Below, one piece after another: positions 1 to 62,255 of a stretch of 64,000 nucleotides of DNA. A program made the translations under genes and the position numbers. The notes under the pieces were generated by a model. The model saw only the letters and a list, made by a program, of their open reading frames with translations, was not told the DNA's origin and searched no databases. The DNA is taken from positions 110,655 through 174,654 of the forward strand of contig CAVULL010000022.1 in assembly GCA_963742335.1 (NCBI GenBank), given 5' to 3'. The DNA is from an uncultured Verrucomicrobiae bacterium (GTDB taxonomy: Bacteria; Verrucomicrobiota; Verrucomicrobiia; Chthoniobacterales; JAFAMB01). Every line of letters begins with the position of its first letter. Position 1 is the first letter of the stretch.

Positions 1-2927
1 TGCCCGCGCCGCGCGACAAGGCGGCGGACAGATTCCGCCCCTGACCCGGGAGATCGAATTGCGAAGTTGCGTCGCCGAACTGACCGCCTTGCTGGTACAG
101 ATGAATGAAAGCGAGGATGATTTGCTCCGGGCAGAATCGGCCACCGCTCGAGAAAGCGGCGCCAGAACAATTTCCATCGTTGTGCTTGGAGGCGGCTTTT
201 CAACTCTCGTCGTTCTGCTGGCCATCGTGATTTTGCGCCGCGACCTCGCCGAAACGAAGGCGAGCGGAGGAGGCGTTGCGCAGGCGAGAAGCTGAGCTCC
301 GAGACGCGCAACGGGTGGCCAGCGTCGGCAGCTGGGAATGGATCGTCGAAACGGGCACATTCACCTGGTCCGAGGAGCTTTACCATATCGCCGGCGGCAA
401 GCCCGAAGAAGCTCCGCCCAATTACGAGGAATTGCCACAGACGCTGACCCCGCAGAGTTGGTCGCATCTCAGAGCCGGCGATGGATCGTCGCTTTGAAAA
501 CCGGACTATCCCTACGAACTTGACCTTGAGATGATTCGTCCGGATGGAACGACCGATGGATCGCCGCGCGAGGCGAAGCGGTGCGCGATCCAGACGATCA
601 GATCACAAAGATTCGCGGCACCGTTCAAGACATCACCGAACGCAAGCGAGCCGCCGAAGAGATCCAGGATCTCTACGATCACGCCCCCTGCGGCTATGAC
701 TCGATTGACGAGAACGGTCAATCTTCCTTCGCATCAACGAGACGGAACTCTCCTGGCTCGGCTATACCCATGCCGAACTGGTCGGCAGGAAAAGGTTCCA
801 GGATCTTCTGACTGATGAAAGCAAGAGGATCTTTGAACAAGAGCTTCCCGCAGGCAAAGACAGAAGGGCACCTCAAGGATCTGGAACTTGAAATGGTTCG
901 CAAGGACGGGACGATCCTGCAGGTGTTACTGAGCTCCACGGTCGTCAAGGATAAGAACAGCGATTCATTCGTGACCCGAACAACCCTCTATGATGTTACG
1001 GAAAGGAAACAAGTCGCTGAGCAACTGAGGCTCTTTAGCGAGCGTCTGACTCTGGCCACCAGGGCTGCTTCGATCGGCGTATGGGACTGGGACTTGAGGA
1101 CGAATCAGGTTTATTGGGACGAAAAAATGTTCGAAATCTACGGATTGCCCGAGCTCGAACTCCGATGCCATACGAAGACATGGCTGCAAACCGTCCATCC
1201 GGACGACTTGGCCCGGGTGATGGAATTTCGCAAGTCGATCGTGGCGAACAAGAGGCCACGGAGCGATTGATTTCCGGATCGCCAGGCAAGAATGGCTCGC
1301 TGCGCTACATCCAGGGCGCCGAATGCGTGGTGCTCAATGAAAAGCAGGAAGTGATCCGGGTTCTGGGCGTCGAACATCGACGTCACGGAACGCAAGAAGA
1401 TGGAGCACAAGATTCAAGAGCAGGCCAATCTGCTCGGTCTCGCCAGCGACGCGATCATCGTTCGCGGACTGGACGAGGAGATCCAATACTGGAACAAGAG
1501 CGCAGAACGGCTTTATGGCTGGACGGCAGAGGAAGCCATTGGCGTTGATTTCACGAAAATTGCCGCCGAAGACCCCGCGTTGTTCGAGGCGGCAAAGGAG
1601 ATTCTGCTGGAAAAGAGGTGAATGGTCTGGAGAGGTCCGTAAAACCACCAAAGCGGGGAACGAGTCGTCATCGTGGAAAGCCGATGGACTCTTGCTGCTG
1701 GATGATCTGCGCAATCCGAGATCGATCTTGGCGATCGACACGGATATCACCGAGAAAAAACAGATGGAAGCGCTCTTTCTGCGCAACCAGCGCCTCGAAA
1801 GTATCGGTCAACTGGCCGGCGGCATCGCGCACGATCTCAACAACATTCTCGCCCCGATCTTAATGGGCGCCCAGATGCTTCGCCAAAACGCGGATGAACC
1901 GGACAGTCCCTTCATCCTCGCGCACCATCGAGACAAATGCGCAGCGCGGAGCCGAAATCGTCAAGCAAGTCGTCGCGTTTGCCAGAGGAGTCGACGGGAA
2001 ACGCGTTCTCTTGCAGGCCCGCTATGTGCTCGCGGAGATCTGCGGCATCATTCGTGAGACCTTTCCCAGATCCATCGCTCTGAAGATCGAGCAACAACAA
2101 AATCTCTGGACAATCATGGGCGACGCCACGCAACTGCATCAAATCCTGCTCAATCTGGCCGTCAACGCCCGGGACGCGATGCCTCACGGAGGAACCTTGA
2201 CCGTGGCAGCCGAAAACCTGTTGCTCGATCAGGCTGGTGCCTCACTGAGACCCGGACTCGAACCGGGGCCGCATGTGCTGTTCAAAATCTCGGACACCGG
2301 AACAGGTATAGCGCCTGATATCGCCGATAAGATCTTCGATCCCTTTTTTACCAATAAGGGACCGGACAAAGGATCGGGATTGGGCTTATCGACCGTGATG
2401 GGCATCGTGAAAAGCCACAAAGGACACGTCGAGTTCGATAGCAAAGTCGGGGCCGGAACGGAATTCCGGGTTTACCTCCCGGCTGAGCCGGGATTGCCCC
2501 GGTTGACGCCGGTCCAGGCAGGGAACGAGCGATTGAGCCTCCTCCGAAAGGGCATGGTGAACTAATTCTCATCGTCGACGATGAAGAGGCGGTACGATCA
2601 GTGACGAAGCGAATTCTTGAATCAAATGGATATCGGACTCTCCTTGCCAGCCAGGGAACCGAAGCAGTTGCGTGTTACGTAGAGAAAGGATACGAGATTA
2701 GCGTGGTCCTGACAGATTTGCATATGCCGGATATGGGCGGAGTGGAGGCCATCGCCGTGCTTCGGCAAATGAATCCCAGCGTCAAAATCATCGTCGTCAC
2801 CGGCGCCGGTTCCGCTCTTGGGGCGCCCAGCCCGGAGGAAATGGGCGTTCAAGCCTACATTAAGAAGCCTTTCGATGTGGCTCACTTGCTGGTGACGTTG
2901 AACAATGTATTGCAAGGGAAAAACTCT
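1..2927 (+). pseudogene. Hybrid PAS/PAC sensor histidine kinase with C-terminal receiver domain. The reading frame is broken about 11 times and the 5' end lies off-window.
   Basis: ORF-track pieces 59-295 (TM segment), 276-497, 581-811, 815-1270 and 1400-1621 carry PAS/PAC-type repeats ending in '..D(I/V)TERK..'. Piece 1515-2057 has the H-box 'GGIAHDLNNIL'. Piece 1894-2565 has HATPase_c boxes 'LNLAVNARDAM', 'DTGTGI' and 'GSGLGLS'. The frame of 2601 gives a receiver domain 'LILIVDDEE..TDLHMPDMGG..KKPF'. The pieces are collinear in protein order but lie in different frames. Confidence 0.8.
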
Positions 2928-2930
2928 TCG

Positions 2931-3552
2931 ATGAAATCTTATATCGCGCTTGGCGCAATTTTACTCGTGATCCTCAATGCCTTGCTCCTGCTTCCGGCGA
3001 CAGGGAGCTCACACTGTTCCGATTTCCGTTCTGGCATCTTCCTGGCGATCCTCGTTCTGGTGTTTTCCCTCATCGGCGGAAAAGGCGATACGCCCGTAAC
3101 AATCCGTCCAGACGGCGATCCCGGCGCCCGTCCCGGTTGCCGTTCAGCCTCCAGCGCCGGTCGGTAACCAAGCCGAGGCGGAGGTAGTGGCATTCTTCGG
3201 CCTGCTCCAGGAAAAGGGTCGACTGGTGGATTTTCTGATGGAGGATGTGACCCTCTACGAGGACGCAGAAGTGGGCGCCGCCGCGCGGGTGATCCATCAG
3301 GGATGTCGGCAAGTTCTTCAGGAATATTTCAAAATTTCTGCCATCTCCGACGCCCAGGAAGGCACCCAAGTTACTGTACCGACAGGTTATTCCACGGACG
3401 AGTACCGACTGGTCGGAAAACTCACTGGGGAACCACCCTTCACAGGAACGCTTCTCCACAAAGGTTGGAAGACCGAATCCGTAAAACTCCCGCGAATCGT
3501 GGCCAGGGAACGATTGCCCTCCATCGCGCCCGCCGAAGTCGAACTCAAGTGA
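2931..3552 (+). pseudogene. DUF2760-family protein (TM helix, Pro/Ala linker, DUF2760 core) with one frameshift at about 3100-3165
   Basis: 'MKSYIALGAILLVILNALLLL' lies in the frame of 2601. In the frame of 3187 the sequence reads 'PAPVPVAVQPPAPV..EAEVVAFFGLLQEKGRLVDFLMEDV..HQGCRQVL', which I recognise as the DUF2760 pattern. This family typically neighbours atypical Hsp70 genes. Confidence 0.6.
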
Positions 3553-3598
3553 CTTGCGTGGTATTCCTCGATTCTCACGACAACTTCAATCCCATCAA

Positions 3599-5446
3599 AT
3601 GAGTACACGTTTTAGCCTGGGGATTGACCTGGGCACCAGCAACAGCGCAATTGCCATCGAGGATTTCGTCAGCGGCCGGAACGATATTATCCAGATCACT
3701 CAGGTCCTCGGCCCAAACCAGATCGGCGAAAAATCAACGCTTCCGTCTGCTCTCTATATTCCGCACCCGGACGAGTTTTCAAAGGATGGGATGCGATTGC
3801 CATGGTCAAAAGGTACCGGCGAACCGATCGTTGGCCATTTTGCCCGGGATCACGGCGCACTGGTTCCTGACCGGTTGATCACTTCGGCCAAGTCGTGGCT
3901 TTCGAATTTTCACATCGATCCAAAGAAACCGGTTCTACCGTGGAAATCCGATATCAAAGAGCAGAAGCTTTCTGCGTTCGACTGTTCGCGTCGCTATCTC
4001 GAACACATGAAGGAAGGCTTCCTTTATACGGAATCCAACCAGGGCCACGCCTGGGATCTCGCAGAAGGTCAGATCGTGGTAACCGTTCCGGCTTCCTTTG
4101 ACGAAATCGCGCGGAATCTGACCGCCGCCGCCGCTGAAGAGGCCGGCTTCGGCAAGGTCGTCTTGCTCGAAGAACCGCAGGCCGCATTTTACGCCTGGAC
4201 AGCTCAAGCCGGTAGCAGTTGGCGAACCCAGGTCAGCCGCGGCGATATCGTTCTGGTCTGCGACGTTGGAGGCGGCACCGCCGATTTCAGTCTGATTGCC
4301 GTAACCGAAAAGGATGGCAATCTCGAGGTGGAACGCATCAGCGTCGGTGAGCACATCCTTCTCGGAGGCGACAACATGGATCTGGCGCTCGCTTACACAC
4401 TGCAAGCGCAATTGGAAGCCGCCGGAAAGTCGATCGATTCGTGGCAGTTTCTCGCCCTGATGCACGCCGCCGGCATCGCCAAAGTTCAAGCTTTTCACCG
4501 ACCTGTCACTTGAGCAGTGCCCGCTCGCGGTTCCCTCTCGCGGGTCGAGTTTGCTTGCCAAGACCCTTTCCACAAAACTGAGCCGCGCGACCCTCGAGGA
4601 GGTCATCCTGGACGGGCTTTTTCCCGCTGACCAAAGTGACCGATCTGCCGCAGGAATCCAGAAGCGCCGGCCTCCAGGAGTTCGGTCTCCCCTATGCGTC
4701 AGAACCGGTCGTCAGCAAGCATCTCGCCCGCTTCTTGACCCGAAGCCTGATCAATGTCAAAGCCAGCGAAACACTGACCGCGCTCGTTCGGATCACGTCC
4801 CGAGGCACTGGAAGGCGACTACCTCAAACCGACGGCCGTCCTTTTCAACGGCGGGGTTTTCAACGCGGCTCCAATCCGGAAGCGCGTGCTCGGATCTTCT
4901 CATTTCGTGGGGCAAAGGGGCTCCAGTTCGCGAACTTGCAGGATTTCAACCGGATTTGGCCGTCGCCAAAGGAGCAGCGCTATACGGTCACAATCGCGCG
5001 ACGGGACAAGGTATCCGGATCAAAGCAGGTACCGCCCGTTCGTATTACATCGGACTTGAATCTTCGGCACCGGCGATCCCGGGATTTAAGCCACCGATAA
5101 AGGCCCTTTGCGTGGTGCCGCAGGGCATGGAGGAAGGCAGCGAACTACTGATCGATGAACGAGAATTCGGACTGATCACCGGACAACCGGCTGATTTCCG
5201 CTTCTTCGCTTCCGAAGTCCGCAGCGGAGATGCGCCCGGTGCAATCATCGCAAACCCGGAACGCGAACTCGAAGAAACCGGCAAAATCGAAGTTACGTTG
5301 CCCGCAGTAGAGGGATTTCCGGAAGGTCAGGCGATCCCGGTGGTCATCAATCCGATCGTTACCGAGCTAGGAAATCTCGAGCTCTGGATGAAGCACACTG
5401 GTCAGATCGTCGTTGGAAGGTCGAATACCAGGTCCGGATGGAATAA
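3599..5446 (+). pseudogene. Atypical Hsp70-family ATPase, about 615 aa if repaired, with at least 5 frame changes
   Basis: Actin-fold ATPase motifs are present: 'FSLGIDLGTSNSAIA', 'VVTVPASFDE', 'LLEEPQAAFYAW', 'VLVCDVGGGTADFSL' and 'LLGGDNMDLALA'. The protein continues through track pieces 4551- and 4636- plus a third frame ('PTAVLFNGGVFNAAPIRKRVL'). It ends 'DRRWKVEYQVRME*' with the stop at 5444-5446. Confidence 0.75.
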
Positions 5447-5467
5447 GGTGCGTGCCGGTCCCGTTTG

Positions 5468-8270
5468 ATGGCTCATAATCGCAATTCAGCATTGGCATCG
5501 ATCTTGGCACGACGAATTGTGCCATGGCATTCGAGGAACTCGGCTCCGCCGTCGCGCCAGCGCGAGGTGCTCCTCATCTCGCAATGGGAGAACACTGCGC
5601 GATTTTCTGAAGCGTCTACTTTGCCTTCATTTCTTTACCTCCTGTCGCAGGACGAAGCCGCGCAAATGTCGGACCAAACCACCTTGCGCGCGGAATGGGT
5701 TCCCGGCCGCTTCGCCAGAACACGGGCGGCGGAATCGCCTGGTCGCGTCGTGCATTCCGCAAAATCGTGGCTGTGCCATCACAGCGTCGATCGAAACGCT
5801 TCGTTCTTGCCCTGGCGTTCAGATGAAATCCCGTCGAAAAACGAATATCGCCCATCCGCGCTTCCGCTTTGCTACTTGCATACCTGCGCGCGGCATGGGA
5901 CGCCAGGTTTGCCGGCGAAAGACTGCGGTTCGACGAACAGGAAATTACGATTACCGTTCCGGCCTCTTTTGACGCAGCGGCCCAAAGGCTCACTCTGGAC
6001 GCCGCGCGAGAGGCCGGTTTTCCTGACAGGTGTCCGTTTGCTGGAGGAACCACAGGCAGCATTTTACTGGTGGCTGGAACGGACCATCGGAAGAAAGTGC
6101 CGTCTCGAAACGAGCTCTCCAGCACCGAGGTGCAACATGTCCTGGTCATCGACATTGGCGGGGGCACGACCGACTTCACTCTCTTTGAGATTACTCCCGG
6201 ATCGAACCCTCCGCTGCCGCAGATCAAGCGGGTCGCCGTAAGTGATCACCTCCTTCTCGGAGGCGACAATATCGATCTGGCCATTGCCCATCGGATCGAA
6301 TCGCGCCTGCCGGCGCACGAGCCGCTTTCCGAGGTTCAGTGGAATTTCCTGGTCGCCCGCTGCCGTGACATCAAAGAACGCTGCCTCTCAGATTCCTCTA
6401 GTCACTCATTTACGGTGTCAGTACCCGGACGCGGATCGAGCCTGCTCGGGCGGACACTCGGCGCTCAGATCGAGCGAGCAGAGATCGAGTCGATTGTGCT
6501 CGACGGATTTTTCCCCGAATGTCATTTGCGATGACCAACCTGCCAGGACTCAGGCGGGATTGAGAGAGTGGGCGCTGCCTTATGCAGCGGACAGCGCGGT
6601 CACTCGATACCTGGCAGACTTTCTGCGAGATCGGCCGGTTGTCGATGCCATCCTGTTTAACGGGGGATCGCTCTATCCAGAGGCACTGCGCCGCCGTTTG
6701 CAAAAGCAGATCGCTCGATGGCAACATGGCTCCGAGCCGCAGCTCCTAGAGAATCCGGAGCCAAGTCTCGCCGTTGCCCGAGGGGCCGCTCATTTCGGCA
6801 GTATCGTTCATCGCCGCGCTCAGCGGATCGAAGCAGGCGCGGCGCGCGCAATCTATTTGGAAGTCCACCAAACAGAGACTCGAAAACAGACGTTCGCGGT
6901 CCTCTCCTGATTTGTATCCTGCCCGCGGGCGCCCCATCAGAGGAAGAATTCCAGGTTTCTCCAGATGGTCTCGAACTCCGTCTCAATCGTCCAGTCCGGT
7001 TTCAGGCCTACTATTCGACCCGGCGCACCAGGGATCAAGCAGGTTCCGTCGTACCCTGGAATGATCGCGATTTCCACCGCTCTCCCGCCATTCCAGACGA
7101 CCGCCAGACTTGGTCGAGACCTGATCGAGAGAGTGACCGGCTTCCGGTGACTCTCACTGCTCGCATCAACGAACTCGGCTTGCTCCGCGTTGCCTGCGTC
7201 AGCACAGATCTCGATGCTCAAGGAATCTGGCCACTCGAATTTGATCTTCGTCCGCACGAATCGGGCCTCACGAAAAATTCCGGTCGGGATGCCTACCGAA
7301 ACCGTCCAGATGGACGCCGGAGTTGATCCCGACCGACTGCAGCGCAGCAGATGCCCGGATCACGACCCTGTTTGCCCGACCTCTCGAGAGACGGGACAAA
7401 ATCTCAGCGGCCAACCTTCTTAAGAGCCTTGAACAAATCCTCGGCAAACCAAAAGCCGATTGGAATTATCTGCTGATCCGCTCGCTCTGGCAGTTCGCTC
7501 GAAGACATGCTTCTCCGAGTCGGCAAAGAGTCTGTCGACCACGAAGAAACCTGGCTGATTCTCGCCGGGTTATTTTCTGCGACCTGGATTCGGAGCAGTG
7601 GGCGACGAAACGCGGATCGACAAACTCTGGAGGATTCATACGGAGGGTCTCGCCTACCCTGGCAAACGGAACCAGCTGCAAACTTATATCCTCTGGCGAC
7701 GGGTCTCCGGCGGTCTGACCAGCGAAAGACAGGAGGCAATTCTAGCCCCAGAGTTGTCCAGAGTTGCGCGCGCGAAGCAATCCGTCCGCAGAGCTTGTCC
7801 GACTCGCCGGATCGCTCGAAAGAATTAACGTGGTCACCAAGTCCGACCTCCTCGACGAGTTCCTCCAGGCCGCTCGTGAGCTCGCCCTAAAGAAACAACA
7901 TGCCACGCCACACCTCGCCGCTCTCGGACTTCTGCTCAATCGCAGCCTTTTCTACGCCGAACCCCAGTTCGTTCTTCCGCCGATTCACGTTGAAAAGGCG
8001 TACGAAGCGCTTTCCGATCTCGACTGGTCGGATTCGCTGCTGGTCGAAATCCAGACCCTTTTTCTCCGCGCCGGACGCCTCGTAAACGACCCGAAAATCG
8101 ATTTACCAAAGTCTTTACGCGAAAAAATCGTTTCGAAACTGCAAAAAACGAGCGTCTCTCCTTCCAAAGTCGCCAGATTAAGAACGTTCGTCCCCGTCGC
8201 TCTGTCCGATCGAGCCAGTCTCTTTGGCGAATCGCTGCCTCCCGGTCTGGTGATCGCCGGGGAAACCTAG
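5468..8270 (+). pseudogene. Second, long atypical Hsp70-family protein, about 930 aa if repaired, with at least 10 frame changes
   Basis: Motifs 'FSIGIDLGTTNCAMAF', 'ITITVPASFDAAAQ', 'VRLLEEPQAAFYWW', 'VLVIDIGGGTTDFTLFEI' and 'LLLGGDNIDLAIA' are spread over frames of track ORFs 5465-, 5869-, 6242-, 6718-, 7323-, 7507-, 7598- and 7764-. A long non-Hsp70 C-terminal extension ends at 8270. Confidence 0.7.
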
Positions 8271-8381
8271 TGCACCGTCTCCCTGTCACGACGAATTTTA
8301 TCGGGAACCAAATTTATCAGCCCGCTGATGGTTGCACGCCCGGTCCCCAGCGGCGAAGAGTTTATCTCGGAGAATAGAACG

Positions 8382-9362
8382 ATGGATTACCTACCTCTTG
8401 GAAATACCGGCTTGAAAGTTTCACGCATTTGTCTGGGCTGCATGAGCTACGGATCGAAAAAATGGCGAGATTGGATTTTGGAAGAATCGGATGCGCTGCC
8501 GTTTTTCAGGCAGGCTCTCGATGCAGGAATCAACTTTTTTGATACCGCTGACATTTATTCCTCGGGTGCAAGTGAGGAGGTCACTGGGCGGGCTTTGAAA
8601 AAGCTCGGCGTCAAGCGCGAGCAGGCGGTGATCGCTACGAAGGTTTATAATCCGATGGGCGACACTCAAAACGAACGGGGTACTTCGAAAAAGCACATCA
8701 AGCACGCGATCGATGCCAGCTTGAAACGCTTAGGCGTCGACTACGTGGACCTTTATCAAATTCATCGCTACGACGAGACTACGCCGATGGAGGAGACTCT
8801 GGAAGCGTTGACCGATGTGATCAACCAGGGAAAGGCTCTTTATATTGGTGCTTCCAGTATGTACGCCTGGCAATTTGCCAAGTTTTTGTATCTAGCCGAT
8901 CGGCACGGTTACGCCCGGTTTGTTTCCATGCAAAACCACTACAATCTGGTCTACCGGGAAGAAGAGCGTGAAATGAATCCACTTTGTCGGGCCGAAGGAA
9001 TTGGATTAATTCCCTGGAGTCCCCTCGCTCGCGGGTTCCTGGCGGGCAATCGGCGATCAGAAGATAAAGGCGAAACGGTCCGCGCAAAATCAGATCAATT
9101 TGCCCATGGTCTTTATTACAAAGAGGACGACTTCCAGGTAGTCGACCATGTGACCGAAATAGCAAAAAAACGCGGCGTCTCAAACGCCCAGGTTGCATTG
9201 GCTTGGATCCTTCATCAACCCGGGGTGACCTCCCCGATCATCGGTGCGACAAAAACCCATCATATCGAGGATGCAATAAAAGGCGCCGACCTCAAGTTGA
9301 CCGAGGAAGAACTCGCGTATCTGGGGGCTCCCTACAAACCGCATCCGATCCTGGGTCACTGA
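8382..9362 (+). CDS. Aldo/keto reductase
   Basis: 'MDYLPLGNTGLKVSRICLGCMSYG..INFFDTADIYS..VDLYQIHRYD' is a typical AKR signature. The ORF is intact and the ATG lies at 8382. Confidence 0.85.
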   Translation: MDYLPLGNTGLKVSRICLGCMSYGSKKWRDWILEESDALPFFRQALDAGINFFDTADIYSSGASEEVTGRALKKLGVKREQAVIATKVYNPMGDTQNERGTSKKHIKHAIDASLKRLGVDYVDLYQIHRYDETTPMEETLEALTDVINQGKALYIGASSMYAWQFAKFLYLADRHGYARFVSMQNHYNLVYREEEREMNPLCRAEGIGLIPWSPLARGFLAGNRRSEDKGETVRAKSDQFAHGLYYKEDDFQVVDHVTEIAKKRGVSNAQVALAWILHQPGVTSPIIGATKTHHIEDAIKGADLKLTEEELAYLGAPYKPHPILGH

Positions 9363-9795: not shown

Positions 9796-9870
9796 AGGGG
9801 TGTTCTCTTCGTTTACCTGGAATATCAGCTGGAATCAAACCAATAACATCCCTGAAGCGGGCCGTCGTCG

Positions 9871-9931
9871 TAAGCGAAGCGGCTCGCTTTGCTTCTTTCC
9901 AGGACGGGAGCAAACCGGGACGGTTCGCTTA
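9871..9931. repeat. REP-like palindromic element, copy 1 (arm A, 17-nt spacer, arm B)
   Basis: TAAGCGAAGCGGCTCGCTTTGC (9871-9892) and GCAAACCGGGACGGTTCGCTTA (9910-9931) are near-perfect inverted repeats. The same element recurs at 44168-44224 and 62401-62458, and a half copy lies at 27266-27287. Confidence 0.85.
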
Positions 9932-10485
9932 CTTTGCTAATTAAGACCAGTTCGAACACAGTTGCTCTGGCGCTGAACCTGGTGCCCTTCGCAGGCATAG
10001 CCTTCTTGTGGTTCATCGGCGTGCTGCGCGACCGCCTGGGAGAACTTGAAGACCGCTTCTTTGCCACCATCTTTCTCGGCAGCGGGCTTTTGTTCCTCGC
10101 CATGCTGTTCGCCTCAGCCGCCGTGGTGGGCGGAATCATCATAGCCTATGCTGCTAGGCCCGAAGGGCTGCTCAACTCGTCGACGTTTACCTTCGCCCGC
10201 GCCGTAACCTACGAGATCATGAACCTCTACGCGGTCAAGATGGCGGCGGTGTTCATGATCTCTACGTCCACGCTCGCGATCCGAACCGGTATCACCCCGC
10301 GCTGGATTGCGTTCCTCGGCTTTGCTTGCGCGCTGCTTCTCCTGCTCAGCGGGCGCTATACTGAGTGGATTTTACTGGTCTTCCCGCTGTGGGTGCTCTT
10401 GATCAGCATCTATATCCTGATTGATAATAATCTCCGGCGGCCGTCTCAACCCACGGCGACAAGCCCGGGACAAACAAATTCTTAG
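9889..10485 (+). CDS. Multi-pass membrane protein of unknown function. The 5' end overlaps the palindromic repeat, so the gene may be N-terminally truncated.
   Basis: The protein has 5-6 hydrophobic helices ('LVPFAGIAFLWFIGVL', 'LLFLAMLFASAAVVGGIIIA', 'WIAFLGFACALLLLLSG', 'LLVFPLWVLLISIYILI'). Its first ~15 codons are repeat sequence. Confidence 0.5.
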   Translation: MLLSRTGANRDGSLTLLIKTSSNTVALALNLVPFAGIAFLWFIGVLRDRLGELEDRFFATIFLGSGLLFLAMLFASAAVVGGIIIAYAARPEGLLNSSTFTFARAVTYEIMNLYAVKMAAVFMISTSTLAIRTGITPRWIAFLGFACALLLLLSGRYTEWILLVFPLWVLLISIYILIDNNLRRPSQPTATSPGQTNS

Positions 10486-10548
10486 AAGATGGAGCGAGCC
10501 ATTCTCTCACAAAATAGACGTCTTCTGACGCAAACACCCCCAAAAAAT

Positions 10549-11340
10549 CTAATGAAATATAAACCCATGGATGCGCTCTGGCCGAAACACATGAGCTTTC
10601 ACGTTAAGCGCCTTTTTGGCCATTTCCAATGGGTTCGACAGCAGGTCGCGGGCGTCGTCTCCACAAATAACACACCGGAAACCTGTATGGGACGATCCGG
10701 TATCGGGCGGCGTCCCGCGACGCGCGCTAGGGCGATAACTCTCGCAGTAGTCGGGGTTGCAAAGGAATGAACCGCCTTTGACAACGCGCTTGGGGGAGCA
10801 CGGATCGCCTGGATCATAACTTTCAGCCGGTCCCCCGGGATTGCGACAAACGTTTTTGCTGGCGGCCTCGAGGTTGGTATCGACCCGATACCAGTCGCTG
10901 CACCATTGCCAGACGTTGCCAGCCATGTCGTACAAGCCGTAGCCATTCGCTGGGAAGGAGCCCACGGGCGAAGTGCCTATAAATCCATCTTCGCCAGTGT
11001 TGTGAACCGGGAATAATCCCTGCCAGGTGTTCGCCATGTGTTTGCCCCCCGGCTTGAATTCCTCACCAGACATAACGCTTTGATTCCAAGCCGCCACGGG
11101 CAGCGAATTCCCATTCGGCTTCCGTGGGTAGGCGTTTACGCGCCCATTGGGCATAGGCTACCGCATCGTTCCACGAGACCTGAACAACTGGATGATTTTC
11201 TCTTCCCTGGATACAACTTTCAGGGCCTTCGGGATGCCGCCAATTTGCTCCGTGCAACCCAACGCCACCAAGCCGACAAGTCGTTGAGCGGGACTGGTCC
11301 AGCGCTAGGAGTAAAGACCAGCGATCCAGGCGCTGGATGT
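10549..11340 (-). pseudogene. Formylglycine-generating enzyme (FGE-sulfatase/SUMF1) family, frameshifted at least twice and probably 5'-truncated
   Basis: Three frames carry '[25 protein letters not shown]', then '[49 protein letters not shown]', then '[45 protein letters not shown]'. The frame breaks lie at about 11245 and about 11068. Confidence 0.75.
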
Positions 11341-11492
11341 CCCACGGCAATTCAGCGACTTCATCCAGCACGGCTTCCATTGGCCACTTGTCCAACCAGC
11401 GGGTGCGAACCCGGGGGGCAAAGCGTTCCAGGACCTGGCGCGCTTCATTGTTCCAGCGTTGTTCCTGGGGTCCTGCGCCGCCGACGCAAACG

Positions 11493-11714
11493 ATGCTGGA
11501 GAAACTCGATGAGTATCTCGCCGCGGCCGAGATCGCTGCTGACACTGAAGCTCCGCTATTCCGCGCGACCGGTATCACCGCCTACCTCAAGAATAAGGGT
11601 TTGTTAGAACACGCGCAGACGCTTGCCAACCGCTCCTCGCCCCGCGCGACCAAGCTCTATGACCGACGGACGGACGAGATTTCACTGGACGAGGTAGAGA
11701 AGATTGCGATCTGA
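11493..11714 (+). pseudogene. Tyrosine recombinase/integrase C-terminal remnant with an internal deletion
   Basis: '[23 protein letters not shown]|[49 protein letters not shown]' contains the conserved C-terminal H..R..Y block of this integrase family. The segment normally found between 'PLFR' and 'FRATGIT' and the entire N-terminal half are missing. Confidence 0.65.
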
Positions 11715-12986
11715 CGTTTCGCCTCAATAGGGTAGACCCCAACGGTTGGAAGTGGGGCCCCATCGCACGCCCAATTCGCCTACGTCGCGAATATCAACGA
11801 CAATACCGTTTCTGGCTACAGGATCACCTCGCCCACTTGGGGGCGCTCACGGCGGTGGCGGTCGGCGCTCAACCGCTCAACGTCGCGATCTCGAGAGGAT
11901 TTTCCGTGGGATGGAGCAAAAGAATTGAGTCGGGAAGGGTGAAATTCGACTTGCGCAGGTCTAAATTTTGGCTTTTTTTATACTGGCTAGAACTCACCAG
12001 TAACCATGATCAAAGAGTCCAAGCGGCTTTATTTGCCGATTTCCCCAGGTAGGCAGAGAAGCCGGAGGGTCAAAGCGTTCCGTGTGAGTTCTAGCCCTCC
12101 TTTAATTTAACGGTATGGACGGCATAGATGGACTCACGGATCTCAGTTTCTAGCTTTCGGTGAAACTGACGCAGCAAGAGGTGAACTTGCTGCGGCTGGC
12201 AGTTTCGCAGGCTGCTTCGGCGGAGGAGGCAAAGGAAGCCGGTAAGTTGTTTTTCAAAAGTTTACGAACGCGAGGGTCGAAGTACGCAGTTCGCGATCAG
12301 GATGCCCCGTAATCGCGCCGGAATGCCCAGGATTGATCGGAAGGCCGGGAAGCGCGTGGGCTAACTAACCGACCGAAAACCTCCGTTAAGGGGCTGCACA
12401 AGGCACGCTGCGATACGACCCAATAAGCACCAACAGACCGGAATCGATCGACAGCATTTCCGCGTGAGAATACGAGGACCGGAGCTGCGGATATGCCTTG
12501 TCACGGGCCAACCTCCTGGCCTTACTCCCCGCGCAATTTCCCAAAATAGGCAGAACCGGAAGTTTCCGGCCTGGTAAGGATTGGAAAGAGCGGCTGGGTA
12601 GTCGCTTCTACCAGGAAAATGCCAGGGCCAAAACTAAAAACGGAAATACCCTTTTCGGGAAATGGCGATAATAGCAGTGAACTGGGGAGGCCTGGGGTTG
12701 CCCGAGGTCGGCTAGCTCAAAAAGCATTGCATAGTGCATGCATCACTGTCATGCTCAACGTCTTTAGGACAGGCTAATCGCCTTCTCTCCTTCGCTACGA
12801 GGAGAGGCATCCAATATCCTCAGCGAAGAGTCTGAGGCGACAGCTTTCAGCCTGAAGGTCACTTCTACTCCAGTCGCATGGTCTTTTGCGCACGCCTGCA
12901 TTTTAAGTGGTCGCCGTTCGCAGCGTTTAAGGAAGGCCGGCGCGGAGTGGGCGTAACTCCAGTCTATCTCAACAAAAGAAACAGAT

Positions 12987-14087
12987 ATGGAAACAACAAC
13001 TCAAAGTGGAACGCCGGCTGGCGCCGGCAAATCTTCATTGAACCCCGACACCCTTAATCAGCTTCTTGGGCAGATGGTCAACGATCTTGGAGCAGCCGTA
13101 AATGGGGCACTCATTGTACTTGGTGACGGACTCGGAATTTACACAGCGCTTGCTGATATTGGCCCGGCGACCTCGCAGAAACTCGCCGAAAAGACCAACC
13201 TCAATGAGCGACAGCTTCGCGAATGGCTTAGTGCCCAGGCCGCTTCGGGATACATCAGCTATGACGCGGCGAGCGACTCCTTTTTTCTCACTCCTGAACA
13301 GACCGCGGTGTTTGCTGATCCGGACAGTCCAGCGGCAATGATAGGTGGATTCTACAGTGTCTCGGCCGTTTACCACGATGAGCCGCTCGTTGCGGAGAGT
13401 TTTAGGACTGGACGAGGCCTACCTTGGGGAGGGCATCACAATTGCCTTTTTTGCGGAACGGAGAGGTTTTTCAGACCCGGTTATCAGGCTAACATAAGCG
13501 AAAACTGGATTCCAGCGCTTGACGGCGTTCAGCAGAAGTTGGGCACCGGAACTCGCGTCGCAGACATCGGATGCGGTTATGGCGCTTCCACCCTCATTAT
13601 GGCGAAGGCGTTCCCGAAATCTGAATTCTATGGATTCGATTTGCATCCGGCTTCCATCGAGGCAGCGAATCACCACGCCCGGGAGCAGCATATTCCAAAT
13701 GTCCGTTTTAGCATTGCTACAGCGAAAGACTTCCCGGGCAACGACTACGGATTTGTGACGGTATTCGATGCCCTTCACGACATGGGCGATCCGGTTGGTG
13801 CAGCGTCACATGTCAAACAGTCCCTTCAACCCGATGGCACATTCATGATTGTAGAGCCTTTTGCGGGAGACTCGCTCACTGAGAACCTCAATCCGGTGGG
13901 CCGAGCGTATTACGGGTTTTCCACCATGGTGTGCACTCCTAATTCGCTCAGTCAGGAAGTTGGCCTTGCCCTTGGAGCGCAAGCCGGCGAGCGGCGCTTG
14001 AGAGACGTTCTCTCGAAGGGCGGGTTTACCCGAGTCCGCCGTGCCGCGGAAACGCCGTTCAACATGATCCTGGAAGCGCGGCCATAG
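12987..14087 (+). CDS. Class I SAM-dependent methyltransferase with an N-terminal winged-helix-like domain
   Basis: 'VADIGCGYGASTLIMAK' is SAM motif I, followed by 'FDALHDMGDP' and 'LQPDGTFMIVEP'. The 366-aa ORF is intact. Confidence 0.8.
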   Translation: METTTQSGTPAGAGKSSLNPDTLNQLLGQMVNDLGAAVNGALIVLGDGLGIYTALADIGPATSQKLAEKTNLNERQLREWLSAQAASGYISYDAASDSFFLTPEQTAVFADPDSPAAMIGGFYSVSAVYHDEPLVAESFRTGRGLPWGGHHNCLFCGTERFFRPGYQANISENWIPALDGVQQKLGTGTRVADIGCGYGASTLIMAKAFPKSEFYGFDLHPASIEAANHHAREQHIPNVRFSIATAKDFPGNDYGFVTVFDALHDMGDPVGAASHVKQSLQPDGTFMIVEPFAGDSLTENLNPVGRAYYGFSTMVCTPNSLSQEVGLALGAQAGERRLRDVLSKGGFTRVRRAAETPFNMILEARP

Positions 14088-14628
14088 GAGATCTGTCGGG
14101 AGTCGAACGTGTGCACTGGAAATCAGCGGTAGAGAGCTAAAAGCGCCTTTAGTTGAGAGTTGGCCAAGCCATTTTTGCGCCAAGGGAGTAGGGCTACGTA
14201 GCATCAAGCAGCCAAATTTTTGGAATTTAATTCTCACCGAATCCCGCAGATTCTCATCGGAGATCGCACTCGCCAAGCGGTTGGCGGGGGCCTGCCGGAG
14301 CGGTGAGGCTTATTGGGTCATATCGCAGCTCGCCTTGTGTAGCCCCGTTAAGGCGTTCCGATGCAAGCACCAAAACATCGTTGAGCTTCTCTTCTGCTAT
14401 CGAAGCCTCCCGGTTCTAGTCTGTCACCGCGTGGATCAGGATGCTATAGGTTACTCGGGGTGATCGTTGTGGACGGTGCAGGTGGCCACTTCTGCCGTTA
14501 TAGGCCGAAACTGGTAAAACCGAAACGCACCGGGGTGGCCACAGACGCGTTTTGATTCAAGTCTACTTCGTCTAATAAGACCTGGACTCTTCATGGGAGT
14601 CATCCCTGCGATCTCCCAAGTTTCGCCC

Positions 14629-14880
14629 TCACGGACTATAAGCGATGAATTGTGGGGCATCGCTATTGGTCAACAGGCGGATCTTCCAAGCGTCACCGTC
14701 ACGAACATAAATCGCTGACCAGAAGCCGCTCTCGAACTTCGGACCGGTCTGGCCTTGACGGGTACTCCACCATTTTCCGGTCGACCAAATCGCGTTGTCG
14801 ATTGCATTCAAACACGAACCCTGACCGCTAGAGATGGTAATAGGCCACCGCTGGAACGTGTCTGCGTACCATTTGCCCAC
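14629..14880 (-). pseudogene. NTF2-like (SnoaL/DUF4440-type) C-terminal fragment. A second similar fragment may lie at 14451-14660.
   Basis: 'KWYADTFQ..GFWSAIYVRDGDAWKIRLLT' resembles the end of NTF2-fold proteins. No matching N-terminal half lies upstream, because a stop occurs immediately 5' of the fragment. The next ORF repeats '..VREGETWEIAGMT'. Confidence 0.35.
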
Positions 14881-15688
14881 TCATTTTTGCCATGAGCCAT
14901 CTGCCACCGAGATCGACTAGAGCAGTAGGAGAATTTCGATTTTAGATGAAGAAATTAAGGACGTCGAGCTTCGATAATATTCTTGGCCTCTCGAAATGTT
15001 CTCTGGCCCTTTGACCTCATCCTTCGTAAGTCCAACTCCCCCCCGATTCCATCTCCTGCAGTCGTACTCGCTAATCGTTGTACTTAGCCTGCATCGTAAC
15101 AATCTGTTCTTCGGCCTTCTTGACGGCTGCCCGACCGGAAGAGTAACCGCTGTTACGTGGTCAAATAGATGCGGCATTAGGACCCAAAATTCCACTAACT
15201 CTCGACAAAATGACCCAAATGTACACTGTTTTGGAGGAGTTCTTTTCGGGCCAGCTTTGGAATGTTTCCTTGGCGTTGCTCCCCCTCCGGCGCCGCACGC
15301 GGGAAGGCCTGGCCGGCGCCCCCCAGCCGCCGCCAATCTATTCGGCCAAAGCCAAAACGCGCCCCCACCTGGTCACAGGCCCAGATTAAGTGAGAATGAG
15401 ACCACATTGTTTGAGAACAGCCCAACATCGGTCGGAAACCACGATGATCGAGAATGACGACTGGTGCTCATACTCGATCACCCAGTTCACAGACCCTGAC
15501 CAAAGGCGTTCCCTCTGGCGCAAACAGTCGGGCGCTCTCCCGGACGTCGAGCAGCCGCGCCGACGGCACTTCGCGTGAGATTCGGTTCCAACCGAGGGAG
15601 TCTGTCGGAGATTCTTCTTGCGGCGGACGCGCGACAATGAAAAAATTCGGGCTTCTCCAATTTCTTAATCACCCAGCGAGAACTAAAC

Positions 15689-16825
15689 ATGCTGAAACGG
15701 ATGATTGGCTGCAGAATCGTCTTAGCCAGTGTGTTTGCCATGCTCATCTGTTTCGGGCGCGCCGCAGAGCCGCTCAAAATCGGCATGGTAGTTTCGGTCA
15801 CGGGACCGCTGGCCGAATCCGGCCTTTACCGGATTCAGGGTGCCAAGCTCGCTGTCGAGGAGATAAACAAGGCAGGTGGTTTGCTTGGCCGACAAATCGA
15901 GCTTGTCATAGAGGATGACCAAACGACCAATCCCGGGGCTGTGCTCGCCTTCAGCAAGCTTGCCGGGGACAAGGATATTCCCGGGTTCATCGGACCGACC
16001 CTTAGCACCCAGGTCCACGCCGTGGCACCAGACATCCAGAGGACCGGCAGACCGGTAATGATAGGAGCCACTGACCCACAGCTTACCCATATGGGCTATA
16101 CATGGCTGTTCCGCTGCCGTCCGAACGACATCTATTCGGCGCGCGTGATCGCCGACTACGGCGTCAATACGCTAGGTAAAAAAAAGTGGGCGATCGTCCA
16201 CTCGACTGATGCCTTCGGCACCAACGGCATGAAGAATCTGGTCGAAGTGCTAAAGCGCACAGGGGTCGAACCCGTGCTGATTCAGGGCTACACCAACAAC
16301 TCGCAGGATTTTACCGCGGTGGCGCTCGCCGTTAAACAGTCAGGTGCCGATGTCATGAGCACCTATATGACCTTTCCGCCTGACCTAGGTATTTTTGCCA
16401 GGCAGTTGCGTCAGCTGGGCATCAATATTGTCTGGGTCGGCTCTCCCACGACGGTGGTGACGACCGCCCTGAAGCTCGCTGGACCGGCGCTGTACGGCTC
16501 CTATGCTGTCTCCGATTTCGCCGCCAACTCAAGCCCGACAGCCAAAGAGTTCGCGACCAAATACGAGGCGACCTACAAGTCTGCGCCCGACTTCAATGGG
16601 GCATCGACCTACGACGCGGTTCACGTTCTAGCGCTCGCGATCGACAACGCTAAGAGTCTTGAGCCTGAGAAGATCCGCGAGGCGATCTTGAGCGTCAAGG
16701 GCTACGCGGGCGCCGAGGGCACTTACAATTTCGATCAGAACGGCGATGGGCTCCACGGCTACAACATCGTCAAAAACGATAACGGCAAGATCGTGTTCAT
16801 CAAGCATATCGACTTCAGCGAATAG
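15689..16825 (+). CDS. ABC transporter substrate-binding protein of the branched-chain amino acid (LivJ/Peripla_BP_6) type, orphan
   Basis: A signal peptide is followed by 'PLKIGMVVSVTGPLAESG..GAKLAVEEINKAGGLLGRQIELVIEDDQ'. No permease or ATPase genes are adjacent. Confidence 0.8.
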   Translation: MLKRMIGCRIVLASVFAMLICFGRAAEPLKIGMVVSVTGPLAESGLYRIQGAKLAVEEINKAGGLLGRQIELVIEDDQTTNPGAVLAFSKLAGDKDIPGFIGPTLSTQVHAVAPDIQRTGRPVMIGATDPQLTHMGYTWLFRCRPNDIYSARVIADYGVNTLGKKKWAIVHSTDAFGTNGMKNLVEVLKRTGVEPVLIQGYTNNSQDFTAVALAVKQSGADVMSTYMTFPPDLGIFARQLRQLGINIVWVGSPTTVVTTALKLAGPALYGSYAVSDFAANSSPTAKEFATKYEATYKSAPDFNGASTYDAVHVLALAIDNAKSLEPEKIREAILSVKGYAGAEGTYNFDQNGDGLHGYNIVKNDNGKIVFIKHIDFSE

Positions 16826-17152
16826 AGAATCTGCGCGGAGCGCGGCATGCCCTGACCCGCTGCACGCGCAAAAGCCTATGGGCATAGCCTCCAGCTTCTC
16901 TTCACCGCGCAAGCTGGCCGATGCATTCGACGATCGGGCCATCGCACATTCGCGATATCGTCCAACATTAAACAGAGTGCCCACTTTGTTTCATGTTTTC
17001 CCGCTGTGGCAACGCGCAACAGGCGCGGGGGGGGCGGTCTGCCGGCGGCGCCCAGCTCCCTTCGGTCATGCCCAATGGCCGTAAAGGAAAGCTTTAGAAA
17101 ACTGTACGAGCTTTCGGTACAAAACTTGACTTTTCTGTGCAAATTGCATGTC

Positions 17153-17402
17153 CTAAAAAGATGAATCCTCCCTCCTTTCACACCCGCACTCGTAACGCCC
17201 CTGCTTGTTAAGATCGGTCATCACCGTAAGGTGGTTCACGAGAAGCGCTGGCGCCCTCGCCTCCCGAAGCCTTTCGCTCCACTCAACGAGCGGCACGTTG
17301 CAATAGCGGATCGTCCGACCGAGTGGCTCGGAAAAGACGCACGCGTGGTGGCCTAGATCGGCCGACTCAGATCCGGTCAGATTGTAAACATGACCGTGTC
17401 TG
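17153..17402 (-). pseudogene. NmrA-like/atypical SDR C-terminal remnant
   Basis: 'HVYNLTGSESADLGHHACVFSEPLGRTIRYCNVPLVEWSERLREARAPALLVNHLTVMTDLNKQGRYE' matches the C-terminal third of NmrA-family proteins. The Rossmann-fold N-terminus is absent, and the upstream part of the ORF overlaps the ABC ATPase gene. Confidence 0.55.
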
Positions 17403-61507: not shown

Positions 61508-62255
61508 CTAACGTTTCCCAAGGTTTACACCAGCAGCGAACGCTTCGAAAACTTTCCGTATTTCGTCGCGCACCCGGCAAAAAACAGCAAAAACCTCTTC
61601 TTCACTTCCCCTGGCTTTGGCTGGATCGTCAAAGCCCCAGTGGTAGCGTTTCACCGTTCCGGGAAATATCGGGCAGACTTGGTCGACGTATCCGCAGAGC
61701 AGTGACCACCAGTGCACTTTCTGATCGAGAAATTCCTGGAGGTGTTTCGCGGAACCCCAAATGTCGATCCCAATCTTTTGCGATGCGGGATCGTCAAGGA
61801 TGAATTAAACCGGCGGGTCTCGAGCCCGCACTCTCAACTCGAATGAGATCGAGGTTTTTTGGCCGAAGAATGCCTCCACCATTGGATCGGCATGAATTCC
61901 CGGTGCAAAGGATGAAAATAAGGGCTTTTCCATAAGTCTTTAAGACCCTGGGTAGGCGCTTCAGATCGGACGTCAAAGCAGGATCGCTTTTCGCAGATTC
62001 AGCCACGCATCTGAGGCTGAGTTCCACCGCGCGAGATCTGGGCGATTGCCAGCGATAGACTTTCCAAGTTTGTACCCGGCTGAATTCGACGAGCCCAGCC
62101 TTTCGTAAATAGGCCAGATGCTGGGAGACGTTTACTTGCGGCAGATCGAGTAATTCCTGGAGGTGGCACACACAAAGCGGCTGTTGCAAAAGCAGGTGCA
62201 GTATCCGAAGACGGGATGGTTCCGCAAAGGCTCTGAAAGTCTCTACTAAATTCAT
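61508..62255 (-). pseudogene. arsRC: ArsR-type regulator read in frame into an LMW-PTP-type arsenate reductase. The arsC part is frameshifted.
   Basis: The ArsR wHTH is 'FAEPSRLRILHLLLQQPLCVCHLQELLDLPQVNVSQHLAYLRKAGLV'. With no stop or Met between, the ArsC P-loop 'LCTGNSCRS' follows. The ArsC C-terminus 'CPIFPG..HWGFDDPA' lies in another frame (ORF 61508-61717). Confidence 0.7.

Follow-up and report, generated by a model that had tools for sequence, protein, structure and literature searches.

Why should a block of neighbouring genes, whose domains can still be recognised one after another, be broken into dozens of out-of-frame pieces while the genes on either side read cleanly? This question is raised by positions 1-8270 of a 64,000-nucleotide (nt) stretch of DNA from an uncultured Verrucomicrobiae bacterium, hereafter called the window, which corresponds to positions 110655-174654 of the 180,880-bp contig C22 (C22:110655-174654). 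On the plus strand of this region, the lists of open reading frames (ORFs) contain only short, frame-hopping ORFs, followed by an intact gene of 344 amino acids for an aldo-keto reductase (AKR). The successive fragments carry pieces of PAS, HisKA, HATPase, receiver, Hsp70 and DUF3731 domains according to Pfam. An earlier note on this DNA left two explanations side by side: local sequencing miscalls in homopolymers, for example where a contig ends at low coverage, or real pseudogenisation of recent date. The comparisons described here favour an artefact, but neither the homopolymer or contig-end mechanism nor pseudogenisation. The storm of frame breaks is very probably the product of a consensus in which mixed haplotypes were collapsed during the assembly of a long-read-style metagenome-assembled genome (MAG), as judged from the sequence, and is not a biological feature.

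The analysed genome (G000) is a 6.72-Mb MAG of 43 contigs, with a completeness of 93.9% and a contamination of 6.8%. A protein search with the frame-repaired first Hsp70 retrieved a 614-amino-acid protein with 98% identity, which is encoded on a 259.5-kb contig of the same species (ENA ERZ25039463 contig_24390); the homologues with names in the protein searches belong to Chthoniobacterales, Verrucomicrobiota. This locus, L015, was used as the same-species reference. The other references were the congeners G010 and G005, and L016, a second relative that is a real genome and pairs with L015. All five genes concerned, which code for a GHL10-family protein, a hybrid kinase, a DUF2760 protein and two Hsp70 paralogues (Hsp70-1 and Hsp70-2), are intact and syntenic in L015. 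The module is also intact in most of the congeners searched; in G010 it consists of a kinase of 1122 amino acids, a DUF2760 protein of 207, an Hsp70 of 614 and an Hsp70/DUF3731 protein of 926, and the arrangement in G005 is the same.

The frame breaks were mapped with a purpose-written, frameshift-aware protein-to-DNA aligner, for which G010 and G005 served as references. Against G010, 24 shifts were found in the kinase, three in DUF2760, five in Hsp70-1 and 16 in Hsp70-2; against G005, the kinase, Hsp70-1 and Hsp70-2 showed 25, five and 13 shifts, at positions that agree between the two references. After frame repair, no in-frame stop was present in the five genes or in ileS, a sixth gene that is discussed below. 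A nucleotide alignment to L015 revealed 61 frame-breaking indels between -1388 and 7761 (negative coordinates lie upstream of window position 1, still on C22). None of them is a multiple of three in length, and they divide into 56 insertions (50 of 1 nt and six of 2 nt) and five deletions. Within 1-8270 there are 47 of these indels (kinase 19, DUF2760 four, Hsp70-1 five, Hsp70-2 19). The figure of at least about 25 frame switches given earlier was thus sound as to the breaks themselves and an undercount as to their number.

The storm is sharply delimited. From about -1500 to about 7900, most bins of 500 nt hold 17-81 mismatches to L015, whereas the flanks hold 1-7 (approximately 99% identity) and are free of indels except for a G6 to G5 deletion in an SNF2 helicase gene. 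The neighbouring genes, ParA and the SNF2 helicase upstream and the AKR and a cupin gene downstream, show zero to one indel relative to L015, and no frame break was found in the four genes of the Opp operon that were compared. The earlier note had described the breaks as confined to a four-gene block, with the AKR gene and the peptide-transporter (Opp) operon unbroken. The clean surroundings were confirmed, the AKR gene being without a single indel. The four-gene extent was not, as the storm already begins at about C22:109,270, which is 1.39 kb upstream of the window, in a fifth affected gene of the GHL10 family (6-7 shifts, the first at -1383 in the protein-to-DNA alignment), and also takes in the portion of the kinase gene that precedes the window. 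Both edges of the storm fall inside genes, the left one at about codon 99 of GHL10 and the right one some 500 nt short of the Hsp70-2 stop.

Nor is the storm unique in the genome. A genome-wide scan for frame switches, which compared a codon or dicodon model with a mononucleotide background, ranked this locus first (24 switches per 9 kb; mean 4.0) and C22:87-96 kb second; the scan is crude, and some of the other windows that score high are genuine operons made up of short genes, such as nuoK/J/I. A genome-wide coverage scan with ORFs of at least 200 amino acids did not single out the locus and was confounded by short-gene and non-coding regions, and when a dicodon model was set against a background of high order, the storm was assigned to the non-coding state.

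Were the breaks plain homopolymer miscalls of long reads, made where coverage is low or a contig ends, the indels should betray it. The contig-end version of this idea fails on position, as 110 kb of the contig precede the window. The homopolymer version was put to a tabulation of the junctions, which ran negative: insertions make up 56 of the 61 events, and of the 50 that add a single base only two match a flanking base, where the control gives 23.0 ± 3.5 (six of 50 when judged by eye with G000's own neighbours). The 50 inserted bases are G in 21 cases, C in 17, A in 10 and T in two, and they follow codon positions 1, 2 and 3 in 19, 15 and 16 cases, a uniform distribution that is indifferent to the reading frame. 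Furthermore, low coverage alone could not create some 480 third-position-biased substitutions that match the alleles of other species. Two junctions had previously been interpreted as bases lost from short homopolymers. At 552-559 the alignment indeed gives a 1-nt deletion, which may be a loss of CCC to CC and would suit a miscall; at 716-726 a 2-nt insertion relative to L015, G010 and G005 is the better interpretation (ggtcaa--tttctt in L015, ggtcaaTCttcctt in G000).

True homopolymer error is nevertheless present in this MAG, and single scattered frameshifts occur elsewhere in it, in nuoH and in a treZ-like gene. The gene of the SNF2-family helicase (1042 amino acids) carries a frameshift at window position -3051 (C22:107,603), where the six G residues of the conspecific are reduced to five by a 1-nt deletion. 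This is a classic homopolymer error, and it differs in kind from the events of the storm. Nanopore-type homopolymer indel errors, at which the program proovframe is aimed, likewise leave fragmented and frameshifted ORFs in conserved genes, and the SNF2 deletion is one such error. The storm, in contrast, consists for 92% of insertions, avoids homopolymers, occupies two patches of 8-9 kb and coincides with a blending of alleles. Homopolymer miscalling is therefore extremely unlikely to have produced it.

The blending became apparent from the substitutions. Inside the patch, G000 diverges from its conspecific by up to 16%, almost without substitutions of its own. A five-way alignment of window 1-2930 was made with G000, G010, G005, L015 and L016. 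Over window 1-1000, G000 lies at a distance of 0.13-0.16 from each other sequence, whereas the distances among G010, G005 and the L015/L016 pair are 0.21-0.25. The kinase contains 10 private substitutions in G000, compared with 175 in G010, 218 in G005 and 150 in the clade of L015 and L016; for Hsp70-2 the corresponding numbers are three in G000 and 18-172 in the other lineages. Two incompatible splits are found in window 1-2000, one that groups G000 with L015 and L016 and one that groups G000 with G005, with 41 sites each. The two signals are randomly interleaved (40 runs, 42 ± 4.5 expected) and switch about every 25 nt. Among the 113 alleles of Hsp70-2 in which G000 is unlike L015, 100 are also found in another relative; for L016, a real genome taken as control, the figure is 98 of 193. 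The alternation of alleles over all sites that distinguish L015 from G005 was not used as evidence, since a genuine third lineage predicts the same. A near-zero branch of its own combined with a change of parent about every 25 nt is impossible for a contemporary molecule, but is exactly what calling a consensus site by site from two haplotypes produces. Judged from these alignments, the patch in G000 is not tree-like and is a site-by-site blend of an L015-like and a G005-like haplotype.

These figures also bear on another explanation, namely that a real and intact tract was imported from a divergent congener by recombination and was then overlaid by plain indel errors caused by low depth. Bacteria commonly exchange tracts several kb long by recombination; the borders of the patch are sharp, its divergence bears the mark of selection, and in the flanks the identity to the conspecific is 99%. 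However, a real donor allele would bring private substitutions with it, and G000 has only 3-10 where real lineages have 18-218. Random alternation of the parental signals about every 25 nt would require some 40 crossovers in 2 kb. Depth noise, moreover, would not tie insertions to polymorphic sites and make them repeat the other allele. An import of this kind is consequently very improbable.

The tie between insertions and polymorphic sites was established by asking whether the inserted base equals the alternative allele of the adjoining polymorphic site. This is so for 13 of 14 insertions in the kinase (control 3.1 ± 1.6), for 13 of 13 in Hsp70-2 (control 4.1 ± 1.7) and for seven of nine in ileS (control 2.1 ± 1.3; P = 0.0005), which amounts to 33 of the 36 testable, cleanly aligned insertions of the three genes. 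The observed count was never reached in 2000 shuffles for the kinase and Hsp70-2 sets. At position 1371, for example, L015 and G010 read GT-GA, G005 reads GT-CA, and G000 reads GTCGA. On this comparison of sequences, the insertions are places at which both alleles are written in tandem. The tandem alleles also account for the avoidance of homopolymers by the insertions, and they fit the stretch from 3100 to 4488, where the haplotypes barely differ: it contains no indels and almost no G000-specific differences.

The locus that ranked second in the scan turned out to be a second storm of the same type. It extends over about 87.9-95.7 kb of C22 (window about -22,750 to -14,950), 13.5 kb upstream of the first storm, and covers genes for an aldolase, an isomerase and a dehydrogenase, an M50 peptidase, ileS and lspA. 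When compared with L023, the ileS-region locus on the same conspecific contig as L015, this stretch is divergent and rich in indels, while its flanks are 99.5% identical and indel-free. The ileS gene, the only one in the MAG, carries 13 frameshifts and no stops. Here too, private substitutions are nearly absent in G000 (three, against 66-162 in other lineages), and 179 of the 185 alleles unlike the conspecific are common to relatives. G005 is again the closest sequence, at a distance of 0.149, with the conspecific at 0.207.

The second storm is of importance for the question of whether the genes are genuinely decaying, that is, whether a block released from selection has recently become pseudogenes through slippage indels. 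The sequence as deposited does contain some 60 frame breaks, the affected genes form one functional neighbourhood, and the MAG holds no second intact copy of them. Against this, a single-copy essential gene, ileS, is broken by the same type of lesion, and the borders of the first storm lie within GHL10 and Hsp70-2. The ratio of non-synonymous to synonymous substitution rates (dN/dS), calculated by the Nei-Gojobori method against L015 on the frame-repaired genes, was 0.12 for GHL10, 0.13 for the kinase, 0.39 for DUF2760, 0.09 for Hsp70-1 and 0.26 for Hsp70-2, and there are zero nonsense codons among approximately 550 mismatches. The dS values are 0.06-0.35 for the storm genes, as opposed to 0.004-0.037 for the flanking genes, and some 60-75% of the differences in the patch are at codon position 3 (46, 36 and 203 at positions 1, 2 and 3 of the kinase). 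A three-way alignment with L016 showed that L015 and L016 are unremarkable relative to each other over the patch. The excess divergence is specific to G000, and its codon-position profile resembles the real divergence seen with L016. Because of the low dN/dS, the third-position bias and the absence of in-frame stops, the substitutions in the patch are, as far as can be read from the sequence, real alleles filtered by selection, and neither decay nor random error.

The indels speak the same language. In bacterial mutation spectra and in real decay, indels are biased towards deletions and favour repeats, and the observed ratio of 56 insertions to five deletions together with the avoidance of homopolymers (two of 50) is the opposite. 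About 60 indels that are not accompanied by neutral substitutions do not fit the decay of a pseudogene, and neither does a fine-scale blend of two lineages almost without private changes. The pseudogene clusters of reductive genomes do resemble the storm in that many collinear genes suffer multiple frame breaks and keep recognisable motifs; their near-neutral dN/dS, nonsense codons and sparing of essential single-copy genes have no counterpart here. The pseudogenisation proposed as the second option is hence scarcely credible, given the dN/dS values, the indel spectrum, the broken ileS and the blended sequence. Programmed frameshifting or quadruplet decoding was rejected by eye, without a motif search, as no obvious motif is common to the contexts of the insertions and the junctions are uniform over the codon positions.

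A collapsed consensus of mixed haplotypes could have arisen as follows. Reads or sequences of two diverged haplotypes, one resembling the conspecific L015 and the other the congener G005, would have been piled together over a patch of about 9.3 kb and merged into one consensus. Wherever the haplotypes vary, this consensus would have picked one allele or the other, which would give a chimeric 'average' gene, and at about 60 sites both alleles would have been written consecutively, thereby adding a base and breaking the frame. We infer that the cause was an assembler or polisher for long reads that worked on a pile of mixed reads. At 7.8 and 9.3 kb, the two patches are of a size compatible with a single long read or a few of them, or with a bubble that collapsed in the assembly graph. 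The name of the conspecific contig has the form 'contig_N', which is used by metaFlye. In the organism itself the genes are almost certainly unbroken, like those of the conspecific contig and of most congeners that were searched.

Long-read metagenome assemblers do emit strain-collapsed consensus sequences (10.1101/2023.01.31.526521). Such contigs, of the metaFlye type and known as the problem that Strainy and Strainberry address, resemble the present case in that one consensus stands for at least two co-occurring haplotypes and is the sequence of no single strain, and in that collapsed tracts alternate with sequence in which the strains are resolved (10.1101/2023.01.31.526521). They differ from it in two respects. 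The partners here are up to approximately 25% apart, which is the level of congeners and not the strain level of less than 1%, and the dense one-base insertions of tandem alleles constitute a signature that was not found described in that work (10.1101/2023.01.31.526521).

Several points weigh against a collapsed consensus and should be set beside the evidence for it. Insertions do not lie beside third positions with a synonymous alternative more often than expected (22 of 48, control 21.7), although this test assumed that the partner differs from L015 only synonymously, and the use of the polymorphism observed among relatives reversed the outcome. The two groups of reads, the platform and the coverage are all deduced from the assembled sequence. 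The second haplotype itself was not recovered; its proxy, G005, is still 13-15% away from G000 in the most strongly blended parts, and a hunt for the partner by protein search yielded nothing closer than 89% for the kinase and 98% for Hsp70-1, the latter being L015 itself. Finally, a blend leaves unaccounted for why the effect is strong in just two patches of one contig.

The minor haplotype may derive from a different species present in the sample, or else from a subpopulation with imported tracts. It is conceivable, albeit doubtful, that both of the blended haplotypes belong to one population, part of which would carry G005-like imports of about 8-9 kb at the kinase/DUF2760/Hsp70 and ileS loci within otherwise identical flanks. 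If this is true, the frameshifts would still be artefacts, and the borders of the patches would mark real inter-species recombination tracts that segregate in a soil population of Chthoniobacterales.

The affected genes can be located in the window as follows, all on the plus strand. The 3' part (about 975 codons) of the hybrid CHASE3-PAS-HisKA-HATPase-receiver kinase occupies 1-2924 and was delineated with Pfam and the frameshift-aware and DNA alignments; the start of the gene lies some 0.5 kb before the window, its L015 orthologue is an intact protein of 1098 amino acids, and its 19 indels relative to L015 comprise 18 insertions and one deletion. The DUF2760 gene (2925-3549; 206 amino acids and intact in L015) has its four indels at 2925, 3002, 3035 and 3100. 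Hsp70-1 (3599-5443) corresponds to the intact 614-amino-acid protein of L015 (P0011, the one with 98% identity after frame repair) and has its five indels at 4488, 4612, 4793, 4888 and 5400. Hsp70-2, with a C-terminal DUF3731 (5470-8267), is an intact protein of 909-938 amino acids in relatives, and the last of its 19 indels is at 7761. The blended patch, to which no strand is assigned, takes up 1-7890 of the window and in its entirety runs from about -1690 to about 7890. The AKR gene at 8328-9362 (plus strand) forms the clean right flank, with only two differences from L015, both synonymous.

The order GHL10, CHASE3-PAS hybrid kinase, DUF2760, Hsp70 and Hsp70 with DUF3731 is kept and intact across the genus, at loci L009, L012, L015, L016 and L017. 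Genome G002 has an extra Hsp70-1-like copy (71% identity) beside an Hsp70-2-like fragment. In two congener MAGs with low contig counts the module is broken: in G011 (locus L011) the kinase is split into 503 and 752 amino acids and Hsp70-2 into 860 and 143, and in G006 (locus L013) a 264-amino-acid fragment of Hsp70-2 is found. These breaks are probably assembly errors too. A dispersed repeat of about 85-100 nt lies upstream of ileS in the conspecific (L023 5751-5851) and has matches of 89-90% on contigs C14, C25, C31 and C36 of G000.

Elsewhere in the MAG, nuoH is present in three frame segments (C24:189,742-190,866), beside the short intact genes nuoK, nuoJ and nuoI, and a treZ-like gene of the alpha-amylase family in four (C4:207,754-209,205). 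In the window, an ArsR-ArsC (LMW-PTP type) fusion on the minus strand changes frame at 61794-61810, directly after ...SAGSRPAGLIHP, and the surroundings of the break, catccttgacgat, contain no obvious homopolymer. A break in an FGE gene at about 11068 falls in a strain-specific insert: window 9851-17400 measures about 7.5 kb, and the corresponding part of L015 (16231-17349) only about 1.1 kb.

What has been described here is of consequence for the quality of the data. Relative to the conspecific contig, about 125 spurious indel events are found over the two loci, 61 in the first storm and 66 in the 14.7-kb alignment of the ileS region. Whatever is derived from this genome, be it gene calls, counts of pseudogenes, scans for dN/dS or recombination, or protein databases, will inherit the fragments and the chimeric alleles. 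Such patches may be flagged in other long-read MAGs without recourse to reads, by insertions that avoid homopolymers, by insertions that repeat the alternative allele of their neighbour and by a local collapse of private substitutions. G000 is the sole representative genome of its species, yet at least two patches of 8-9 kb in it would belong to no real organism. For the biology of this bacterium, the storm should carry no weight as a 'pseudogene cluster', and the five genes of the module, together with ileS, are to be treated as intact.

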